DNA of 64,000 nucleotides from Escherichia coli 042 (lineage in GTDB: Bacteria > Pseudomonadota > Gammaproteobacteria > Enterobacterales > Enterobacteriaceae): the NCBI RefSeq assembly GCF_000027125.1, contig NC_017627.1; one strand, 5' to 3'. A model generated the notes under the pieces. It had not been told where the DNA came from. It worked only from the letters and a program-made list of their open reading frames with translations, and did not search any database. The position numbers were made by a program, and so were the translations under genes. Of this stretch, positions 19,911 to 60,023 are shown piece by piece (within the stretch, counting starts at the first letter, position 1; each line of letters starts with the position of its first letter).

Positions 19911-22900
19911 TCAGTCTCCGCCCAGGGTTTTCTCTTTCTGCAGGTCACGGACCATATCCCGCTCCATCTGCTGCAGACGCTCCTGCAGCAGATTTTCCCG
20001 GGCAACCTCCCGGACCGCTTCCCGCTCCCGTTGTGATTCACGCAGCACACTCTCCGGCAGTGCGGTTTCCCGTTCAGAAGTGGCAGTCCGGTCACGTTCC
20101 TGCCCGGCAATCTCCCTGACAGCCTGCTCTGTTTTGCCATCCGGCAGGTCAGGTTTGTTCTCTGCCATTTTACGGACAATTTCATCTGCGCGACGTTCCG
20201 TTTCACGGCGGATGGCCTCTTCAGCCTGCCGCTGTGCCAGCACTTCAGCTGTAACCGGTTCACCATTTCCGGCCCCCGGCTGGACGCTGTTATCCGGGAT
20301 ATCCCCCCACACGCGGCCACCGGTGATGGCACCGGGATTCCACGGACGACCTTCACCGGCAATTCTCACCACCACACCGCTGTCAGGATTATCACGGGCA
20401 ATCCGGACACCATCCTGCATATTATCAGCCAGCAGGCTTTCTCCGTTACGGCTGCCCTGCAGGGCCACGAACTGCGCATCCCCGCTGCCCTTCACCCGTC
20501 CTTCACCGCTGAATCCCCGCAGCCCGTTTCCGTCATCCGTGGTCAGTGGGTTCAGCCAGATACCGGCGGACCTGCCGTTACGGTCAAACGCCGGCAGTGC
20601 CACATACGGCTGCGGATATTTACGTCCCGGTGCAATAAACCGTGCAGGGCTGTCTCCCCCGGCCAGCCCTGCCTGACGGAGAACGGCACGGCCTGCCGCC
20701 ACGTCCCGCAGTTCCCGTGCCGTACTGAACAGCCGCTCTGCATTCATGACCTCCCGGTCCGGTTTCGGTTCAAACACATCGTGGGCTGTTCCTTTCTGTA
20801 CGGCATTGTTAATGGCATCCGTCCAGCCCTGACGGTTATCGGTGTACACCTGCACATGCTGCTTCATACGCGACAGGGCCACGTAGGCTGACTCAAAGCC
20901 TGCCATCAGTTTCCGGTTACCTTCCGTGCCTTCAAGCGCGATGGCAAAGGTTTCACTCGCCCCCTGCGCACCGTGGGCGGTGATGGCATAGGCCAGGTCA
21001 ATATGTTGCTCTGCCCGCTCCTGTCCGGGGCGAATCACCCGGGTCTGCTGTCCGTCCGACAGCGTGACACTGTCACCGGAAACCGCTGTCACCGTCCAGA
21101 CGCTGTTGGCCACATAACCGCGCTCCCGGTCACTCTTCGTGAAGCGCATCCGGTCGCCGGTTCCCACCCGGATGGTGTCCGGGGTGTACAGTGTGACGCC
21201 TTCAGCCACCGCCTCCCGGGGCGAAATCAGCCGCGTGTTACCTTCCGCATCCTGCAGGGTTATCAGCCCGTCATCCTTACTGACACCGGCAATCCGGTGA
21301 TACACATTATCCACCAGGGCAAGGGCATCCGGGTTATTCTCCCAGGTGGAGAGACGACGCAGTTCCCCGTCGCGTATATTCGCTGTATTCAGGACAGGCA
21401 CCATGACCTGCTCTTTCCCCAGCTCACCGGCCTTTTCCCGTGCATCATGAATCATGCTGTTCAGTACGCGCCGGTCCTCATTCAGGTGCGTGACAATCAG
21501 CGTCTGCTCCCGTGCTTCCGGTGTCCTGCCGGTATAGTCGCGGACAATGGCTTCATACAGTGTCATGGGGACATCCGGGAAAGCCTCGCCTTTCAGCATC
21601 GCCTTCTGCTGCGCTTCTGCCAGTTTCGCTTCCTGGCTGTGACTGAACTCCGTCACGGAGTGCTCCGGTGCCCATGCGCCCTCCAGACGTGGCACCTGAG
21701 ACGGTTTCACACTCTCAAGCCCGGACAGTGCCCTTTCCACATCCCGGTTAATCAGGCTGTATACCGCCTCCCGCAGTTCCGGCGTCTGACGCACAATCTC
21801 CTTCATGATGACCACATCGGCAGCACTGCGCGTCTGCTGGAGACGGAAAGGCTGACCGGGCGCGATGGCCTGCAGCTGGTCCGTGTCACCGCTGGCCACA
21901 GCACGACCGCCACCGGCCGCAATCAGGGCGTATGCCCGTGCCATGTCGGTATTGCCCACCATTGAGCTCTCATCGAGCAGGAACAGCGTGTTGCTGAAAT
22001 CCGGCGTTTCTCCGCTGCGCTGCTGCAGCTGCGTGTCATGCAGAAAGGACGCCAGCGTCTGTGCATCCACGCCGGCGCTGCGCATCTCACCGACCGCACG
22101 GTGCGTGGGCCCCAGCCCCACAACTCGGGGACGCTCACTCGCCGGCAGCATGTTCACGGCTGACATCACCGCCCGGAACTGTGTGGTCTTACCCACACCG
22201 GCATAACCCTGTACCACCGTGAAACGGTCGGACGTTTCCAGTATCATGCGGGTGGCGGCACGCTGTCCTGATGTCAGTTTCTCCATGAGTTCGCCAGGTA
22301 CTCTCTCCATCAGCGGCGTGACCGCCTCCTTACCTTCGAGAATATGGCGAAGAATGCTCTTTTCTGCCTCATACGACGCACGGGAAACCAGCAGGCCTGT
22401 GCCATAGCCTTTTGCCACATCCACATACAGTAAATCACCGCGTTTTATCTGCGCATTGATTTCCCCTCCCAGTTCAGTAAAACCGGTTCCTTCTGCAGCA
22501 AACGACTTCGCCTCTGTCAGCAGGTCCACCATGCTGAAGGCCAGGTTTTTACTTTCCAGCACAGGAAGGGCCAGATGAATGGCCTGGTGTGCCGGCGTGT
22601 GCAGCCCGGCTTTCTGCAGACTGATAGCGGTTTCCAGCGATGTCTCACCGGCCCGCGCCTTTATCTGCTCAGAAACCACCGTAAAGGAGGGATGGCGGGC
22701 AAGTTTTTCCGCAGTACGGGTTTCATCCAGTGAGGAATACAGCCGGACATCACGACCGCTGCGGGCCAGACCGTTCAGGGTGGCGTTGTCCATTGCCATC
22801 TGTGTGACGGAGGCAAACACCGTCGCACTGTCACTGACGGAATGCCCGGGCGTTTCCACCCAGCCGTTCTCCAGCTTCAGTGCCGTGAACGGTGAATCGC

Positions 22901-29803: not shown

Positions 29804-32626
29804 TTATTGCTTGTGCTTATCCTGATACTCCTTTGCTCTTTTCATCAGTTCCTGTGGACTGTCAGCACCAGGCATTCTTTCCTGACCCGATTTTTCTTCA
29901 TTATATTTATTATTCTGAGATAATGCCTCTGTTTTATGGTGATTTTGTAGTTCAGAATACTGTCTTCCTACAATATTTTCTTCGCCACGTATGCTGCTCT
30001 GAGTATCTCCGATATTGCCACGATATTCTGTGACCATATTATCAACCTGATGTTTTACATCATTACGGATATTACTGTCCTGCGTTCTTTGCTCAATAAT
30101 GGCCTGATGTCCCTGATGGTCAGCAATAATATTCTGGCTGCCACCGCCCGAAGGTACGCTCTCCATTCCTTTACCGATGTCCCCACGGGATTCACGCCAG
30201 GCATTATCAACACCAGGCTGTACCTGTTCCTGCACAAAAGACCACGCCATAGCCCGACGGCGTTCTGCAATCTCCGGCGAACTGGTATTTGTCAGAATAG
30301 CTTCTGCATCCTGCGGTGCGCGTTTCATCACATACTGTGCAAACTGTTGCGACAGGTCTTCACTCATCTGCCCGCTCATGCTTTCAGTACGGGAGGCCAT
30401 TTCCGCATATTCATGGCTGCGGGTCATATTCGTCGTGTACTGGTCGTAACTCTGTTTCGCTGAGTTCAGGGCTGCAGACAACTGATCCACACGGGAATCG
30501 GCATTATTGTCCGTATGGCTGCCGGATTCACTGACCTTGCGACTGGTAAAGTAATCGCTGGCCTCTTTAAAGTCTTGTGTAGCCCTGGCATCGATATCAT
30601 GGCGAGCATCATGGCTGGCCCGTGAACCACTGCTGGCCTGATGCGCATCCTCATCACTCCAGTCAATACTTGCCCGACCACCACCTCTAACACCTGCGCC
30701 ACCACCAACACCAAGAATTTTAGGTTTAACCCCCCATTCAGCATGAACATCGCCATACATCCCCGCAGAACCTCTCGTACTTCTTGATGCCAGTTCTCTT
30801 GTTGCCTGCTCATTACTGATATTATGCGCCTTCGCATAGCTTTCCACTGCACTGCGCATACGGCTGGCCATCATGGAGTCCTGTGCACTCATGGTGCTGT
30901 CAGCGCCACCGGTGACAGAATCACTGCTCCCCCGGTTAGAACCAAACTGACTGAGCGAGTTCCAGGCACTGGCAATACTGCTGCTGAAACCATGCAGGGC
31001 ACTTTCTGCTCTGTTCGACGCCTCCCGGGCCATTTCCTGTTGTGCCGCTGCAATCTGACGCGTTGCATTGATACCAACCGGTAACCGGGACATCGCTCCG
31101 CTTGCATCCATCACCATATTACCGTCACGGGTCTGTGTGGCAGTTGCGCCACTGCCGGTCTGGTACATCATCTGACCAAACGACGTGGTGCTGTTGGTGC
31201 TCCAGCTGAAGCCGTTCACGTTTTCCGTCTGCATGTTGCCGTAGGAGTAATTACCGTCAACCACACTGCCTGCTGCACTGGCCGTCGGACTGATAGAGGA
31301 AGAGGCGAAGTGGCTGTACACGCTGGAAAAACCTGCGCCAAGGCCTTTTACCATCATCCATGACAACGGGGGGATCATGGCTGAAAGATACCCGGCAGTA
31401 GAGGCCAGGTCAGAGTATTTCAGCTGTATCTGAGAGAGTTCAGACAGCACGACCGGCGCACCATTCATCTTCGCATAGAATGTCATGGCACTGTTCAGAA
31501 TGGCATACAACAACGGCCAGGTCTGCAGCCACATCAGGGCAAACACATAGCCTTTCAGGACGGACAGTGTCAGTTTGTTGAAGACAGCTGCCAGTACCAG
31601 AAGCGGGAAAATACCAATGGCAATTCCCGTCAGGATAGTCTGTACCATTGGCAGGTTTCGCATTGTCACATGACCGATAGAGACATGCGCCAGACGTTGC
31701 TTCTCCATCGATGACGTGGTGGCCAGATTCACCAGGCTGGCGGTGTCACCATTACGGGCGGCATTACTGGTGATACCCTCTTTCAGGGCATTCATGGTGA
31801 CGTTCTGGCGCATAATCTGGCTGGCAGACTGACTGGAGCCGTAGAAATAACTGTAACTGTCACTGACCAGTTGTCTGAATAACAGGTCCGGGTCCGGTCT
31901 GCCGCCAAATATCTGCTGCACATAATAATGCCAGGTCTTGCCTCCCGTCTTTGTATCGAGATTCAGCCTGTCTTTCAGCGTGACCGACGCATCCTTACAG
32001 GTTATGAAATTATTATTGTTGTCATAAACGCCCCGTAGCGGGCTGGGTCGGGAAAAAATCAGCGTGTAGGGGTCAGCGGAGGCCATCAGATCTTCCAGCG
32101 TGTATTTATGATTCAGGTAAATATCACCCAGCACGCAGTTCTGGACGTAGTCCTGGAACAGATTGATGATTTCCGGATTCCGGGACAGGAAATCGGTGCT
32201 TTTCACAATCAGATTCGCCCCGAACAGCATGCCTGTCTTGCTGTAGGTGACGCTGTCCGGTTGGGTGAATATCATCTCGTAGCTGACCACCATCGCATGC
32301 CCGATACGTGTCGTCAGTGAAAGTGGCATCGCCAGACCGACCGGCACATTATCCACCCGATGGACTTTGACCAGGTCACTGTTATCAATAATCTGCACCG
32401 ATGTGCGGACATTAACCAGCAGGCTGATAAGCACAAACACCGCCACCCAGCCCAGTAAATCCATCACGTTGTGCCGCTGTACCCACATAAAAGCCACAGC
32501 AACAACAGACAGGGTGAGCGCAATTTTTTCAATGGAATCCCAGGTCCGGGTACTCATAAATGCTGCAATGGCATTCAGGTTGTTACGCAACCACTCACCA
32601 CCGGCAATCACATAAACTTCATTCAC
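29804..32626 (-). CDS. traG: mating-pair stabilisation / entry-exclusion partner TraG
   Basis: 940-aa polytopic N-terminus plus large periplasmic domain; position in tra order. Confidence 0.9.
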   Translation of the reverse strand: MNEVYVIAGGEWLRNNLNAIAAFMSTRTWDSIEKIALTLSVVAVAFMWVQRHNVMDLLGWVAVFVLISLLVNVRTSVQIIDNSDLVKVHRVDNVPVGLAMPLSLTTRIGHAMVVSYEMIFTQPDSVTYSKTGMLFGANLIVKSTDFLSRNPEIINLFQDYVQNCVLGDIYLNHKYTLEDLMASADPYTLIFSRPSPLRGVYDNNNNFITCKDASVTLKDRLNLDTKTGGKTWHYYVQQIFGGRPDPDLLFRQLVSDSYSYFYGSSQSASQIMRQNVTMNALKEGITSNAARNGDTASLVNLATTSSMEKQRLAHVSIGHVTMRNLPMVQTILTGIAIGIFPLLVLAAVFNKLTLSVLKGYVFALMWLQTWPLLYAILNSAMTFYAKMNGAPVVLSELSQIQLKYSDLASTAGYLSAMIPPLSWMMVKGLGAGFSSVYSHFASSSISPTASAAGSVVDGNYSYGNMQTENVNGFSWSTNSTTSFGQMMYQTGSGATATQTRDGNMVMDASGAMSRLPVGINATRQIAAAQQEMAREASNRAESALHGFSSSIASAWNSLSQFGSNRGSSDSVTGGADSTMSAQDSMMASRMRSAVESYAKAHNISNEQATRELASRSTRGSAGMYGDVHAEWGVKPKILGVGGGAGVRGGGRASIDWSDEDAHQASSGSRASHDARHDIDARATQDFKEASDYFTSRKVSESGSHTDNNADSRVDQLSAALNSAKQSYDQYTTNMTRSHEYAEMASRTESMSGQMSEDLSQQFAQYVMKRAPQDAEAILTNTSSPEIAERRRAMAWSFVQEQVQPGVDNAWRESRGDIGKGMESVPSGGGSQNIIADHQGHQAIIEQRTQDSNIRNDVKHQVDNMVTEYRGNIGDTQSSIRGEENIVGRQYSELQNHHKTEALSQNNKYNEEKSGQERMPGADSPQELMKRAKEYQDKHKQ

Positions 32627-49770: not shown

Positions 49771-49998
49771 CTAAAGTTCTTTAAATGTTGACTCGTTCTC
49801 TTCGATCACCTCCCTGAATATTTCTTCATTATAGAAATCAGGAAACCGTTTCAGATGATCTCTGAGACGGATCTGAACCTCTATAGTTTTACTTCTACCG
49901 CTACGATCTTTGGCCCGAATAAGTTGGTTATTTGTATCTTCATCGAGATACACTGAGACTGTTCTGCTTATCCCGCCTCTCGCGTTACGCCTCCTCAC
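49771..49998 (-). CDS. traY: TraY (RHH oriT-binding protein)
   Basis: 75-aa basic protein; position. Confidence 0.9.
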   Translation of the reverse strand: MRRRNARGGISRTVSVYLDEDTNNQLIRAKDRSGRSKTIEVQIRLRDHLKRFPDFYNEEIFREVIEENESTFKEL

Positions 49999-50091: not shown

Positions 50092-50838
50092 TTACTTAAC
50101 ACCATAAAATTCACGAATTATACTTAATAGCGAATCTATTTCTCCTTTATAGATACATGACACTCTGAATAAATCAAAGTGTTCAAAAAATTCTTTTATT
50201 TTCCGTTTAACTGGTTTAATTCGATCCTCAGATGCTCTGTCTGTAATACCCAACTCTCTGGCAATTGTTGCGTGACCAACACCCAGCATATAAAAAGAGA
50301 AAACAACCAATGTCCCTGGAGAAAGATCATTCCATATCGTTAATTTATCAGAAGTATTTGTATTACTTCCACTCTGATTTAACGCAAAAAATGGATAATC
50401 AGGAAACGGATTAATTTGCCATAAAACAACAGATTCGTCATTATAAAAAGAAACATTCTCCATCCTTATCTGATAGATTTCGCCATGAAAATTAAAACGA
50501 CGACAAAATGCAGAGCCATGTCCAAGAGCCTGGCATTCCAGTTCAAGTGATGAAAGAAAAATTTCAACCTGCAGACGTATATAACTCTCTCCGGATAAGG
50601 GTTTATCTTCTCTGGAAAAGAGTTCAATAAAAGCCCCATTGGCATAAAGGATTTTCCGGTTTTTGTTACGGACACAAACCGGAACGGGAGAATTTCTGTA
50701 GATATTCTGAACGTTAAGGATGTATTTATTTACAGATTGACTGTTAAGTGGCCTTTCTCTACGATCCAGCGCACACATAGGAACCTCCGTTAAGGATTCT
50801 ATGGACAGTCGATGCAGGGAGGTCTGAACTCCCTGCAT
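50092..50838 (-). CDS. traJ: tra operon activator TraJ
   Basis: ORF between traY and traM; start codon lies within a perfect 11-bp hairpin (50811-50839). Alternative start at 50778. Confidence 0.8.
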
Positions 50839-50890
50839 CGGCGATTTTCAGTTTCAATTTTTAACGTGGCATTAACCACGTAATTAATAT
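50800..50890 (+). ncRNA. finP: probable FinP antisense RNA region (antisense to the traJ leader and start)
   Basis: Hairpin GATGCAGGGAG-GTCTGAA-CTCCCTGCATC covering the traJ ATG, followed by a T-rich tract. Ends not determinable. Confidence 0.4.
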
Positions 50891-50971
50891 AACCTTTATG
50901 CGGTTAATTGTCATCAAATTGAACCAGATCAAAATCCTGTTATTTGAAGCAAATCAACTTTTAATTCTTTT

Positions 50972-51355
50972 TTATTCCTCATCATTTTCTGGAAAGAACC
51001 TCTCCATCTCAGATGACACCTTATCCCTGATATCTTCGACCATATTCGCATATTCAAACTTTGGATTCCCGGAAACATGAGGGCTTAGTGACTCAATACC
51101 TAAAATCTTAGCAACTGTTGACTGTGTTTTTACCGCACATTCAAGAAGTACCTTATTAAACTCAGCCTGATTGAACGCTGACTCTTTACGCTCCATCTGA
51201 GCCTCATATACACGAAGCCCTAATTCGAGAAGCATAGTGGATATGCTTGAGAAACTTACATCTGTACTTTTAGCTCCTTCTGCACGTCTTCTTTCCACAA
51301 TTTTATTTATTTTATAGACAATTTCGTCACTGACATAAGCCTGCACTTTCGCCAT
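50972..51355 (-). CDS. traM: TraM (oriT-binding relaxosome accessory protein)
   Basis: 127 aa MAKVQAYVSDEIVYKINKIVERRRAEGAK.. Confidence 0.95.
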   Translation of the reverse strand: MAKVQAYVSDEIVYKINKIVERRRAEGAKSTDVSFSSISTMLLELGLRVYEAQMERKESAFNQAEFNKVLLECAVKTQSTVAKILGIESLSPHVSGNPKFEYANMVEDIRDKVSSEMERFFPENDEE

Positions 51356-51778
51356 ATGTATACCTCTTTATTTTCTTATCGAATCAAATTTATTTCACAT
51401 ATAAAAAAATGACAATTCATCGATGAATCGAATCGTGACGCAAGTTACGAAAATTACGATTCATGCAGCAAATCACATCACGAATTGAATCTAGAGTCAA
51501 TTCGCTTTAACTCGTTGTTTTATTATTACTGATTCATCTATGAGTTGCGTTAAATTCATTGGTGAATCATATGCGATTCACCAATGAATCCTTTTTATAA
51601 TGTAAAATAAATTAAAATACATTATTTAAAACATAAGTTAATGATTCAAATAGCAAATCAGCAAAAACTTGTTTTTGCGTGGGGTGTGGTGCTTTTGGTG
51701 GTGAGAACCACCAACCTGTTGAGCCTTTTTGTGGAGTGGGTTAAATTATTTACGGATAAAGTCACCAGAGGTGGAAAA
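51356..51778 (+). other. oriT: origin of transfer (oriT); F-type nic motif GTGGGGTGT|GGTGCT near 51687/51688; plus strand is the transferred strand
   Basis: tttgcgtggggtgtggtgcttttggtggtgagaaccaccaacc matches the recalled F nic region; AT-rich repeats between nic and traM. Confidence 0.85.
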
Positions 51779-52541: not shown

Positions 52542-52580
52542 TAAGTAAAGCCCCGAAAAATTTTTCGGGGCTTTACTTAT
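52542..52580. terminator. bidirectional rho-independent terminator (perfect palindrome) between gene X and the orf273-like gene
   Basis: taagtaaagccccgaaaaatttttcggggctttacttat. Confidence 0.7.
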
Positions 52581-53821: not shown

Positions 53822-54330
53822 CTGTATCTGATGTTTTCAGCCCCCATCATCTGTTGAGTTTCGGGAGCCGCGGTTTTGACGTTTTGCGGGGACCTGCCTT
53901 TTGTTCCCTCCGGTATTCACCATCACCTGTTTGAGAACCTTCGCCGCAAGGGGCATCACTGCCACGGCCTGACGCACCTGTCCTGGGCAGAACGCAAAAT
54001 TTTTTACCGGGTTTTAGGTAAAAAATTTTGTGGTCTGTTCATTTACCCTGGACAGTCAGTGCGGCAGGTTGTGGCTGTATCAGCCCCCGGCGACAGGGGC
54101 TTAAACAGGTGAATGGCACCGGACACAACAACGGGCAGGGACCCGCCGCAACGACGTGAAGCGCGGTTTGCGAAACGGCGTTGCGCCTTACATCCCGGCG
54201 GCCTTTTGCCGGGATGCCAGGAGCGCAGGCCACGGCGCGACAGAGGCGGCGCGACCGGAACGGTCGCTGCAAGCCCGGGGTTTCGCGTCAGGGATGGAAG
54301 CCCGCCAGGGGGACGCCCGGAAAAGACACT
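53822..54330 (-). promoter_or_regulatory. Frpo/ssi-like leading-region repeat, copy 1
   Basis: Shares long near-identical blocks with 59401-59860 and 62797-63250; internal palindrome caaaattttttaccgggttttaggtaaaaaattttg. Confidence 0.6.
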
Positions 54331-54662: not shown

Positions 54663-54824
54663 CTACTTACCGCCGGATTCGTAAGCCATTGTTGCCGTAA
54701 CTTCCCTGTATCCGTCCTTCAGCCGGACTTCGCACAGACGATTCCGGGTCAGGAATGTGAATATCAACAACGTGCAGCACACGATTAATACGCACCAGAT
54801 AAGGGCGTTTCCCGGTAGTTTCAT
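54663..54824 (-). CDS. hok: Hok-family membrane toxin (hok/flmA/srnB-type)
   Basis: [53 protein letters not shown]; overlapping mok-like frame 54667-54882 in the ORF track. Confidence 0.85.
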
Positions 54825-55342
54825 GGTTTACTCCTCCTTGCAATTTGCACGGTAAGAGGCCATACTGACGTGGACTAGACATGCAGAGGCCTCGTGGGTT
54901 AATGAAAAATTAACTACGGGGCTTTTGTCCTTCTGCCACACGACACGGTAACAAACCACCTTCACGTCATGAGGCAGAAAGCCTCAAGCGCCGGGCACAT
55001 CATAGCCCATATACCTGCGCACTGACCACACTCACTTTCCCTGAAAATAATCCGGTCGTTCAGCCAGTTCACGGGCTATCAGTTCATCCGCAAACAGTGG
55101 TGCATGCCTGTTGATACGTTTCTCCAGATTCCGCCGTCGTACCGCAGCCTTACGTTCTTCGCTCCAGCGGCGCACCGGGCGGTCAGAAATAAAATCCAGA
55201 CAGACCGCATACCCTGCTCCGGCAACCCAGCGTGACATAACGGATGCCGGTGCAGGCTGCCCCGCCTCCACCACTTCTGAAACCAGTTCATGCTCGCCAG
55301 GACAGGGATAAGGCAGTTTCCAGCGCAGTGAGTAACGCCACT

Positions 55343-59400: not shown

Positions 59401-60023
59401 ATGTTTTCAGCCCCCATCATCTGTTGAGTTTCGGGAGCCGCGGTTTTGACGTTTTGCGGGGACCTGCCTTTTGTTCCCTCCGGTATTCACCATCACCTGT
59501 TTGAGAACCTTCGCCGCAAGGGGCATCACTGCCACGGCCTGACGCACCTGTCCTGGGCAGAACGCAAAATTTTTTACCGGGTTTTGGGTAAAAAATTTTG
59601 TGGGCTGTTCATTTACCCTGGACAGTCAGTGCGGCAGGTTGTGGCTGTATCAGCCCCCGGCGACAGGGGCTTAAACAGGTGAATGGCACCGGACAGAACA
59701 ACGGGCAGGGACCCGCCGCAACGACGTGAAGCGCGGTTTGCGAAACGGCGTTGCGCCTTACATCCTGGCGGCCTTTTGCCGGGATGCCGGGAGCGCAGGC
59801 CACGGCGCGACAGAGGCGGCGCGACCGGAACGGTCGCTGCAAGCCCGGGGTTTTCACGCATCGGACCGTAGCGACAGCCCGAAACCGCGCCAGCGGGTTC
59901 GGCGGAGACTGGCGGGTGCGCCAGCAGCTGCCTGTCGGAGTCGGGCCTGACGACCGGATGCCGCCAGGCAGCCGGGAGCCGAAGGTGCGCCCGGCAGACA
60001 GGACAACACTGCAGTAGTCAGAA

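Follow-up and report, generated by a model that had tools for sequence, protein, structure and literature searches.

A FinP antisense RNA gene opposite the traJ leader of an F-like plasmid transfer region from Escherichia coli 042

Described FinOP systems and the present locus

FinOP fertility inhibition decides whether F-like plasmids, important vehicles of resistance and virulence genes, spread at high or at low frequency. We compared the systems of F, R100 (NR1) and pSLT with a locus found in a 64,000-nt stretch of DNA from E. coli 042 (contig NC_017627.1), which was analysed as a whole and is referred to below as the window. The minus strand of the window holds the 5' end of an F-like transfer operon in the order traM-traJ-traY-traA, with traA, traL, traE, traK and traB after traY. 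Both the hairpin discussed here and the FinOP system to which it belongs are already known, textbook biology, and our results leave the known model unchanged.

F likewise encodes FinP between traM and traJ, antisense to the traJ leader and composed of stem-loop I (SLI) and stem-loop II (SLII); the anti-Shine-Dalgarno sequence in the SLI loop and a cofactor of the FinO family are both as in the window. The F-type allele (L010) has SLI and SLII stems, a GACA spacer and a GAUUUU tail identical to those of the window. The two differ in the 5' tail (CAC in the window, GAU in F), in the SLI loop (G--UU against UCACA) and in the SLII loop (GUCUGAA against GAGAGAA), and the 228-aa TraJ of the window represents another allele than that of F, whose N-terminus reads MYPMDRIQQK. 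Moreover, finO of F is interrupted by IS3, whereas finO of the window is intact.

R100 shows the same FinP stem architecture as the window and encodes a FinO protein that is 97% identical. Its TraJ (WP_000283561.1), which is identical to that of pHK08 (L008), and its SLII loop (GUCGCU) belong to another traJ/finP allele, and an R100-type allele was ruled out for the window on the differences in the TraJ N-terminus and the FinP loops. R100 also carries an extra ORF, coding for an alpha/beta-hydrolase, between traX and finO; in the window finO directly follows traX (18530-19891), and the lack of this ORF may affect the FinO level. Among the named references, pSLT has the TraJ N-terminus nearest to that of the window, and annotation gives its TraJ as a PAS-domain protein in the same length class. 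The SLII loop of pSLT is UGACAG, and its stem has U for C, with which the ATG found in the hairpin of the window is lost.

The coordinates of the features are collected in Table 1, which includes Rfam matches elsewhere in the window. The four antisense families AS-pc02, AS-traI, AS-traG and AS-pc01 were originally described from plasmid pHK01. On the far side of finO, at a distance of about 1 kb, the minus strand carries three ORFs in succession (14839-17454; 225, 115 and 523 aa), whose layout is like that of an IS66-family element.

Table 1. Features of the finP-traJ region and other elements of the window
Feature	Position	Strand	Description and basis
finP gene, 77-nt antisense RNA	50772..50848	+	5' tail, SLI, GACA spacer, SLII, GAUUUU tail; Rfam, fold
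FinP stem-loop I (SLI)	50776..50803	+	anti-Shine-Dalgarno CCUCC in loop (50784-50788); fold
Single-stranded spacer GACA between SLI and SLII	50804..50807	+	sequence
FinP stem-loop II (SLII)	50808..50842	+	14-bp stem, 7-nt loop GUCUGAA (50822-50828); terminator scan, fold
FinP 3' tail GAUUUU	50843..50848	+	sequence, fold
FinP promoter, predicted	50737..50765	+	-35 TTGACT 50737-50742, 17-nt spacer, -10 TACGAT 50760-50765; promoter scan
traJ promoter, candidate	50886..50914	-	-35 ATGACA 50914-50909, 17-nt spacer, -10 TATATT 50891-50886
traJ mRNA 5' UTR, about 103 nt	50779..50881	-	Rfam RF00243, fold
traJ SLIII	50881-50864	-	fold
traJ SLIIc	50840-50810	-	middle of 5' UTR; fold
traJ SLIc	50803-50776	-	runs into AUG, -6.9 kcal/mol; fold
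traJ Shine-Dalgarno GGAGG	50788-50784	-	5 nt upstream of AUG, in SLIc loop region
traJ, 228 aa, PAS-domain activator	50092..50778	-	start ATG 50778-50776; Pfam PAS 5e-17
Upstream ATG in hairpin arm	50836..50838	-	in frame, not the start codon; sequence, allele comparison
traM	50972-51355	-	Pfam Tra_M
traY	49771-49998	-	downstream of traJ
finO, intact, 186 aa	18530..19090	-	Pfam FinO_N 2e-39 and ProQ/FinO 4e-27
AS-pc02	18103-18289	+	full-length Rfam match
AS-traI	22256-22332	+	antisense to tra operon; full-length Rfam match
AS-traG	31822-31907	+	antisense to tra operon; full-length Rfam match
AS-pc01	62556-62652	+	full-length Rfam match
sok antitoxin RNA	54822-54993	-	Rfam match; indicates a hok/sok locus
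ALIL pseudoknot	1577-1693	+	Rfam match; marks an IS3-family transposase frameshift element

The antisense RNA and its stem-loops

Rfam searches identified the plus-strand segment 50772-50848 as FinP (RF00107; score 91.2 bits, gathering score 45; whole model covered, positions 1-76 of 76), and the 77-nt RNA read from it folds into two stem-loops with a minimum free energy of -38.6 kcal/mol (z = -6.7). The sequence-only reading had expected a plus-strand antisense RNA of about 80 nt that takes in the hairpin and a T-rich run behind it, and the Rfam placement agrees with this expectation. The hairpin itself was correctly described there: GATGCAGGGAG (50811-50821) and CTCCCTGCATC (50829-50839) are the arms of a perfect 11-bp inverted repeat around the loop GTCTGAA (50822-50828), and the T-rich run is found in GATTTTCAGTTTCAATTTTT, which directly follows on the plus strand. 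In the fold of the plus-strand RNA the stem is lengthened to 14 pairs, one of them G.U (50808-50842, -27.2 kcal/mol), and the terminator scan called this hairpin on the plus strand only. Chance can be set aside as its origin, because the window has 6 places with a perfect hairpin of 11 bp or more where shuffles lead one to expect 0.18, and because of the z-score of the 77-nt RNA. Thus, the hairpin at 50808-50842 is SLII of FinP together with its predicted intrinsic terminator, and on the minus strand it is SLIIc of the traJ mRNA.

The remaining perfect hairpins of this size include two near-identical copies of AAATTTTTTACC-GGGTTTTA/GGG-GGTAAAAAATTT, which lie in the leading region at a distance of 5.6 kb from each other (53997-54028 and 59567-59598), and those at 51556-51587, 52545-52576 and 19966-19993. 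Of the latter three, one is a palindrome of 13 bp located between traM and the oriT side, another is an A5/T5 palindrome, rich in G+C, that resembles a bidirectional terminator, and the third falls within the coding sequence of traI, close to the 3' end.

The RNA has the composition of the FinP class in several respects. It lies between traM and traJ, in antisense orientation to the leader and the first codons of traJ; it consists of SLI and SLII with a 4-nt single-stranded spacer between them and a short U tail at the 3' end; and its SLI region is complementary to the ribosome binding site and the start codon of traJ, the 5' arm of SLI matching the AUG with CAU at 50776-50778. The GACA spacer is the site of RNase E cleavage in FinP of F and pSLT (PMC8136791), and the 5' part of SLII has the same sequence as the F SLII oligonucleotide GACAGUCGAUGCAGG that was used in FinO footprinting (PMC3105414). 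By analogy, SLII is predicted to be the main FinO binding site of FinP. We searched the RefSeq (PGAP) and DDBJ records for an annotated FinP ncRNA and found CDS features only.

FinP scored above the gathering threshold in all 18 plasmid loci fetched for comparison, which are 75-98% identical and come from E. coli, E. albertii, Salmonella, Klebsiella and Enterobacter; many E. coli IncF plasmids share the segment 50092-50960 at 100% identity. In plasmid p948 of ETEC H10407 (L003, NC_017724.1) FinP and the traJ leader are identical to those of the window, and traJ is truncated beside IS2 and annotated as a pseudogene; this plasmid is a naturally TraJ-less relative.

Covariation was analysed in an alignment of 16 sequences from E. 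coli, Salmonella, Klebsiella and Enterobacter plasmids, in which variable loops contrast with conserved stems and a conserved GACA-type spacer region. In SLII 100% of the cells are paired and compensatory changes occur at 10 of the 14 pairs, a level of covariation equalled by none of 500 shuffles, and sliding the partners against each other leaves 33-51% paired; in SLI, 8 of the 10 pairs never vary. The G.U pairs of SLII appear in the plus-strand reading and would be C.A on the mRNA. Since G.U is tolerated only in the plus-strand RNA, this pattern points to selection on SLII as part of FinP itself. The same comparison bears on the idea that the inverted repeat acts as DNA, for instance as a palindrome bound by a protein, or as a cruciform, in the interval from traM to traJ. 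As DNA it is indeed perfectly palindromic and placed in an intergenic region with regulatory function, and further perfect palindromes lie nearby (51556-51587), but the sequence of its arms varies freely among the alleles while the pairing is kept, whereas a protein site would conserve the sequence and not the pairing. Besides, G.U pairs exist in RNA alone, here on the plus strand alone, and both Rfam covariance models, that of FinP and that of the traJ leader, fit over their full length. We consider a function of the DNA palindrome highly improbable and rejected it on the conservation of pairing rather than of sequence, in favor of an RNA stem of FinP.

The predicted FinP promoter sits within the traJ coding sequence. 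The motifs TTGAC (-35) and TA.GATCC (-10) are invariant or nearly so in 12 alleles with divergent surrounding traJ codons, and this conservation of the hexamers inside divergent codons supports the placement of the promoter at 50737-50765. Its function is deduced from sequence, promoter and terminator alike being calls at the level of consensus. A GATC (Dam) site at 50763-50766 overlaps the -10 hexamer TACGAT and is kept in 11 of the 12 divergent alleles; an overlap of GATC with the -10 of finP is also present in pSLT, where Dam methylation has been reported to regulate finP transcription. For traJ, the best promoter-like site of the region, with 10 of 12 matches, is located just upstream of the start of the Rfam UTR, and we regard it (50886-50914) as the putative promoter.

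The traJ start codon and predicted FinOP control

The Rfam family of the traJ 5' UTR (RF00243, traJ_5) matches the minus strand at 50881-50773 over the full model (score 118.3 bits, gathering score 50), and the AUG that ends the model aligns to 50778-50776, the annotated traJ start. A 228-aa TraJ beginning at 50778 is given by two independent annotations, AP019705 (DDBJ) and WP_000332487.1 (PGAP). The sequence-only reading had placed the start codon in the hairpin instead, presumably because the longest traJ ORF (50092-50838, 248 aa) opens at the hairpin ATG (50838-50836). Translation from this codon would yield an N-terminally extended, 248-aa TraJ, whose start would be sequestered by the hairpin, and FinP would act there. 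The codon is in frame with traJ, no stop intervenes, and the in-frame arrangement recurs in three other alleles (L007, L011 and L020). However, it has no Shine-Dalgarno sequence, as the anti-Shine-Dalgarno duplex amounts to +0.4 kcal/mol against -10.2 kcal/mol for ATG 50778, and it lies inside a stem of -23 kcal/mol, 60 nt upstream of the real start. The AUG at 50778 and its Shine-Dalgarno sequence are invariant in 18 other alleles, as are the corresponding CAT and CCTCC in the 16-allele alignment, whereas the hairpin ATG is found at -59, -60, -61 or -62 in other alleles, often out of frame (as at -59, -61 and -62), so that reading from it meets stops. L009 and L012 have ATA in its place, and Klebsiella-type alleles lack it, yet TraJ of L009 has the same N-terminus as that of the window.

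Because the annotations, the AUG of the Rfam model, the Shine-Dalgarno duplex, the invariance among alleles and the variability of the hairpin ATG agree, we conclude that traJ starts at ATG 50778-50776, and that both its ribosome binding site and its start codon belong to SLIc, the weaker stem-loop, and not to the 11-bp hairpin. The extended TraJ was rejected on the Shine-Dalgarno, allele and annotation evidence, and we give it almost no chance. The statement that an ATG is contained in the 3' arm of the hairpin is true of the plus-strand reading; on the traJ mRNA this is the 5' arm. Thus, the assignment of the region to FinP/FinO control of traJ was borne out by both Rfam matches, and the hairpin geometry proposed for that control had to be abandoned. 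The FinP coordinates 50772-50848 and the traJ start at 50778 are the correct ones for annotation of the window.

The tra operon has an intact finO at its distal end. The finO product matches PDB 1DVO at 1.5e-95, and its only differences from R100 FinO, at positions 21, 54, 72, 160, 164 and 186, spare Trp36 and the RNA-crosslinking residues listed in PMC3105414. This weighs against the possibility that FinOP is a non-functional relic here, with the hairpin lacking any current regulatory role and the plasmid derepressed like F. Derepressed F-like plasmids do exist, the close relative p948 has its traJ cut by IS2, and the IS66-family-like element lies about 1 kb from finO (14839-17454), but FinO of the window is full length with both domains, its six differences from R100 avoid the residues mentioned above, FinP fits the conserved pattern in its promoter as well as in its stems, spacer and tail, and traJ is intact; we therefore hold a relic to be improbable. 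Nothing that we found contradicts the FinP/FinOP model, and the hairpin is almost certainly SLII of a plasmid-encoded cis-antisense FinP that would take part in the classical FinOP block of traJ.

For the window our analysis provides the structures, their conservation and covariation, the family membership, the true start, the intact finO and the conserved promoter, and the steps of the mechanism are modelled on work with F, R1 and pSLT (PMC3105414, PMC8136791). FinP (about 77 nt, approximately 50772-50848, plus strand) would be transcribed from the promoter inside the first traJ codons, and its transcription would end at the SLII hairpin and GAUUUU. The base of the SLII stem with the free 3' tail would serve as the high-affinity site for FinO, which would shield FinP from RNase E cutting at the GACA spacer and catalyse loop-loop kissing and duplex formation between SLI and SLII of FinP and SLIc and SLIIc of traJ. 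The FinP-traJ duplex would cover the traJ Shine-Dalgarno sequence (50788-50784) and AUG (50778-50776), both of which are in SLIc, and with the ribosome binding site occluded TraJ would not be made and the tra operon would stay repressed. Since finO and finP are both intact, the plasmid is predicted, by analogy, to be repressed for transfer, and classical FinOP fertility inhibition is to be expected.

Orientation of the stem-loop II loop

The SLII loop of the window, GTCTGAA (50822-50828), is the exact reverse complement of TTCAGAC, the loop found in a locus with the same traJ allele (L020, in the region of its positions 383-389), and the two differ only at the 3 loop positions that are not self-complementary, each in the way an inversion predicts. 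Exact 59-nt matches in PLSDB amount to 288 records for GTCTGAA and 945 for TTCAGAC, the form of the window being the rarer one. A different traJ allele has the loops TGGCTG and CAGCCA, with 259 and 12 records, respectively, among exact PLSDB matches. A pattern scan of metagenome contigs yielded 120 loci with 12 loop types on the SLII stem; these types include two pairs of exact reverse complements, namely GTCTGAA/TTCAGAC and TGGCTG/CAGCCA, and two further pairs that are one substitution short of being reverse complements. Contigs L134 and L087 are identical in their 1,200-nt flanks and carry opposite loops, the window and L056 differ at one base in 1,200, and both loop orientations occur on three different traM-side backgrounds. 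An assembly artefact was ruled out as the source of the inverted loop, because each orientation is present in hundreds of finished plasmid records.

The inversion of the loop between GTCTGAA and TTCAGAC as such is well supported by these sequence comparisons. The three backgrounds would fit recurrent flipping, to which recombination at the hairpin is an alternative. We propose only tentatively, and with more doubt than conviction, that FinP SLII, through its inverted repeat, undergoes repeated minute inversions of its own 7-nt loop, which would change the kissing-loop specificity in one step; cross-kissing between the two orientations, counted by hand, keeps 4 of the 7 loop pairs. In the literature collection that our search covered, nothing relevant was found on tables of finP allele loops or on FinP loop inversion, and the change of a specificity loop by inversion of the hairpin loop is the only point of this analysis that may be new. 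If the proposal is true, the FinP SLII loop of one plasmid would become the traJ SLIIc loop of its sibling, and the FinP RNAs of the two siblings would be complementary to each other, which would bear on how co-resident F-like plasmids escape or keep mutual fertility inhibition.
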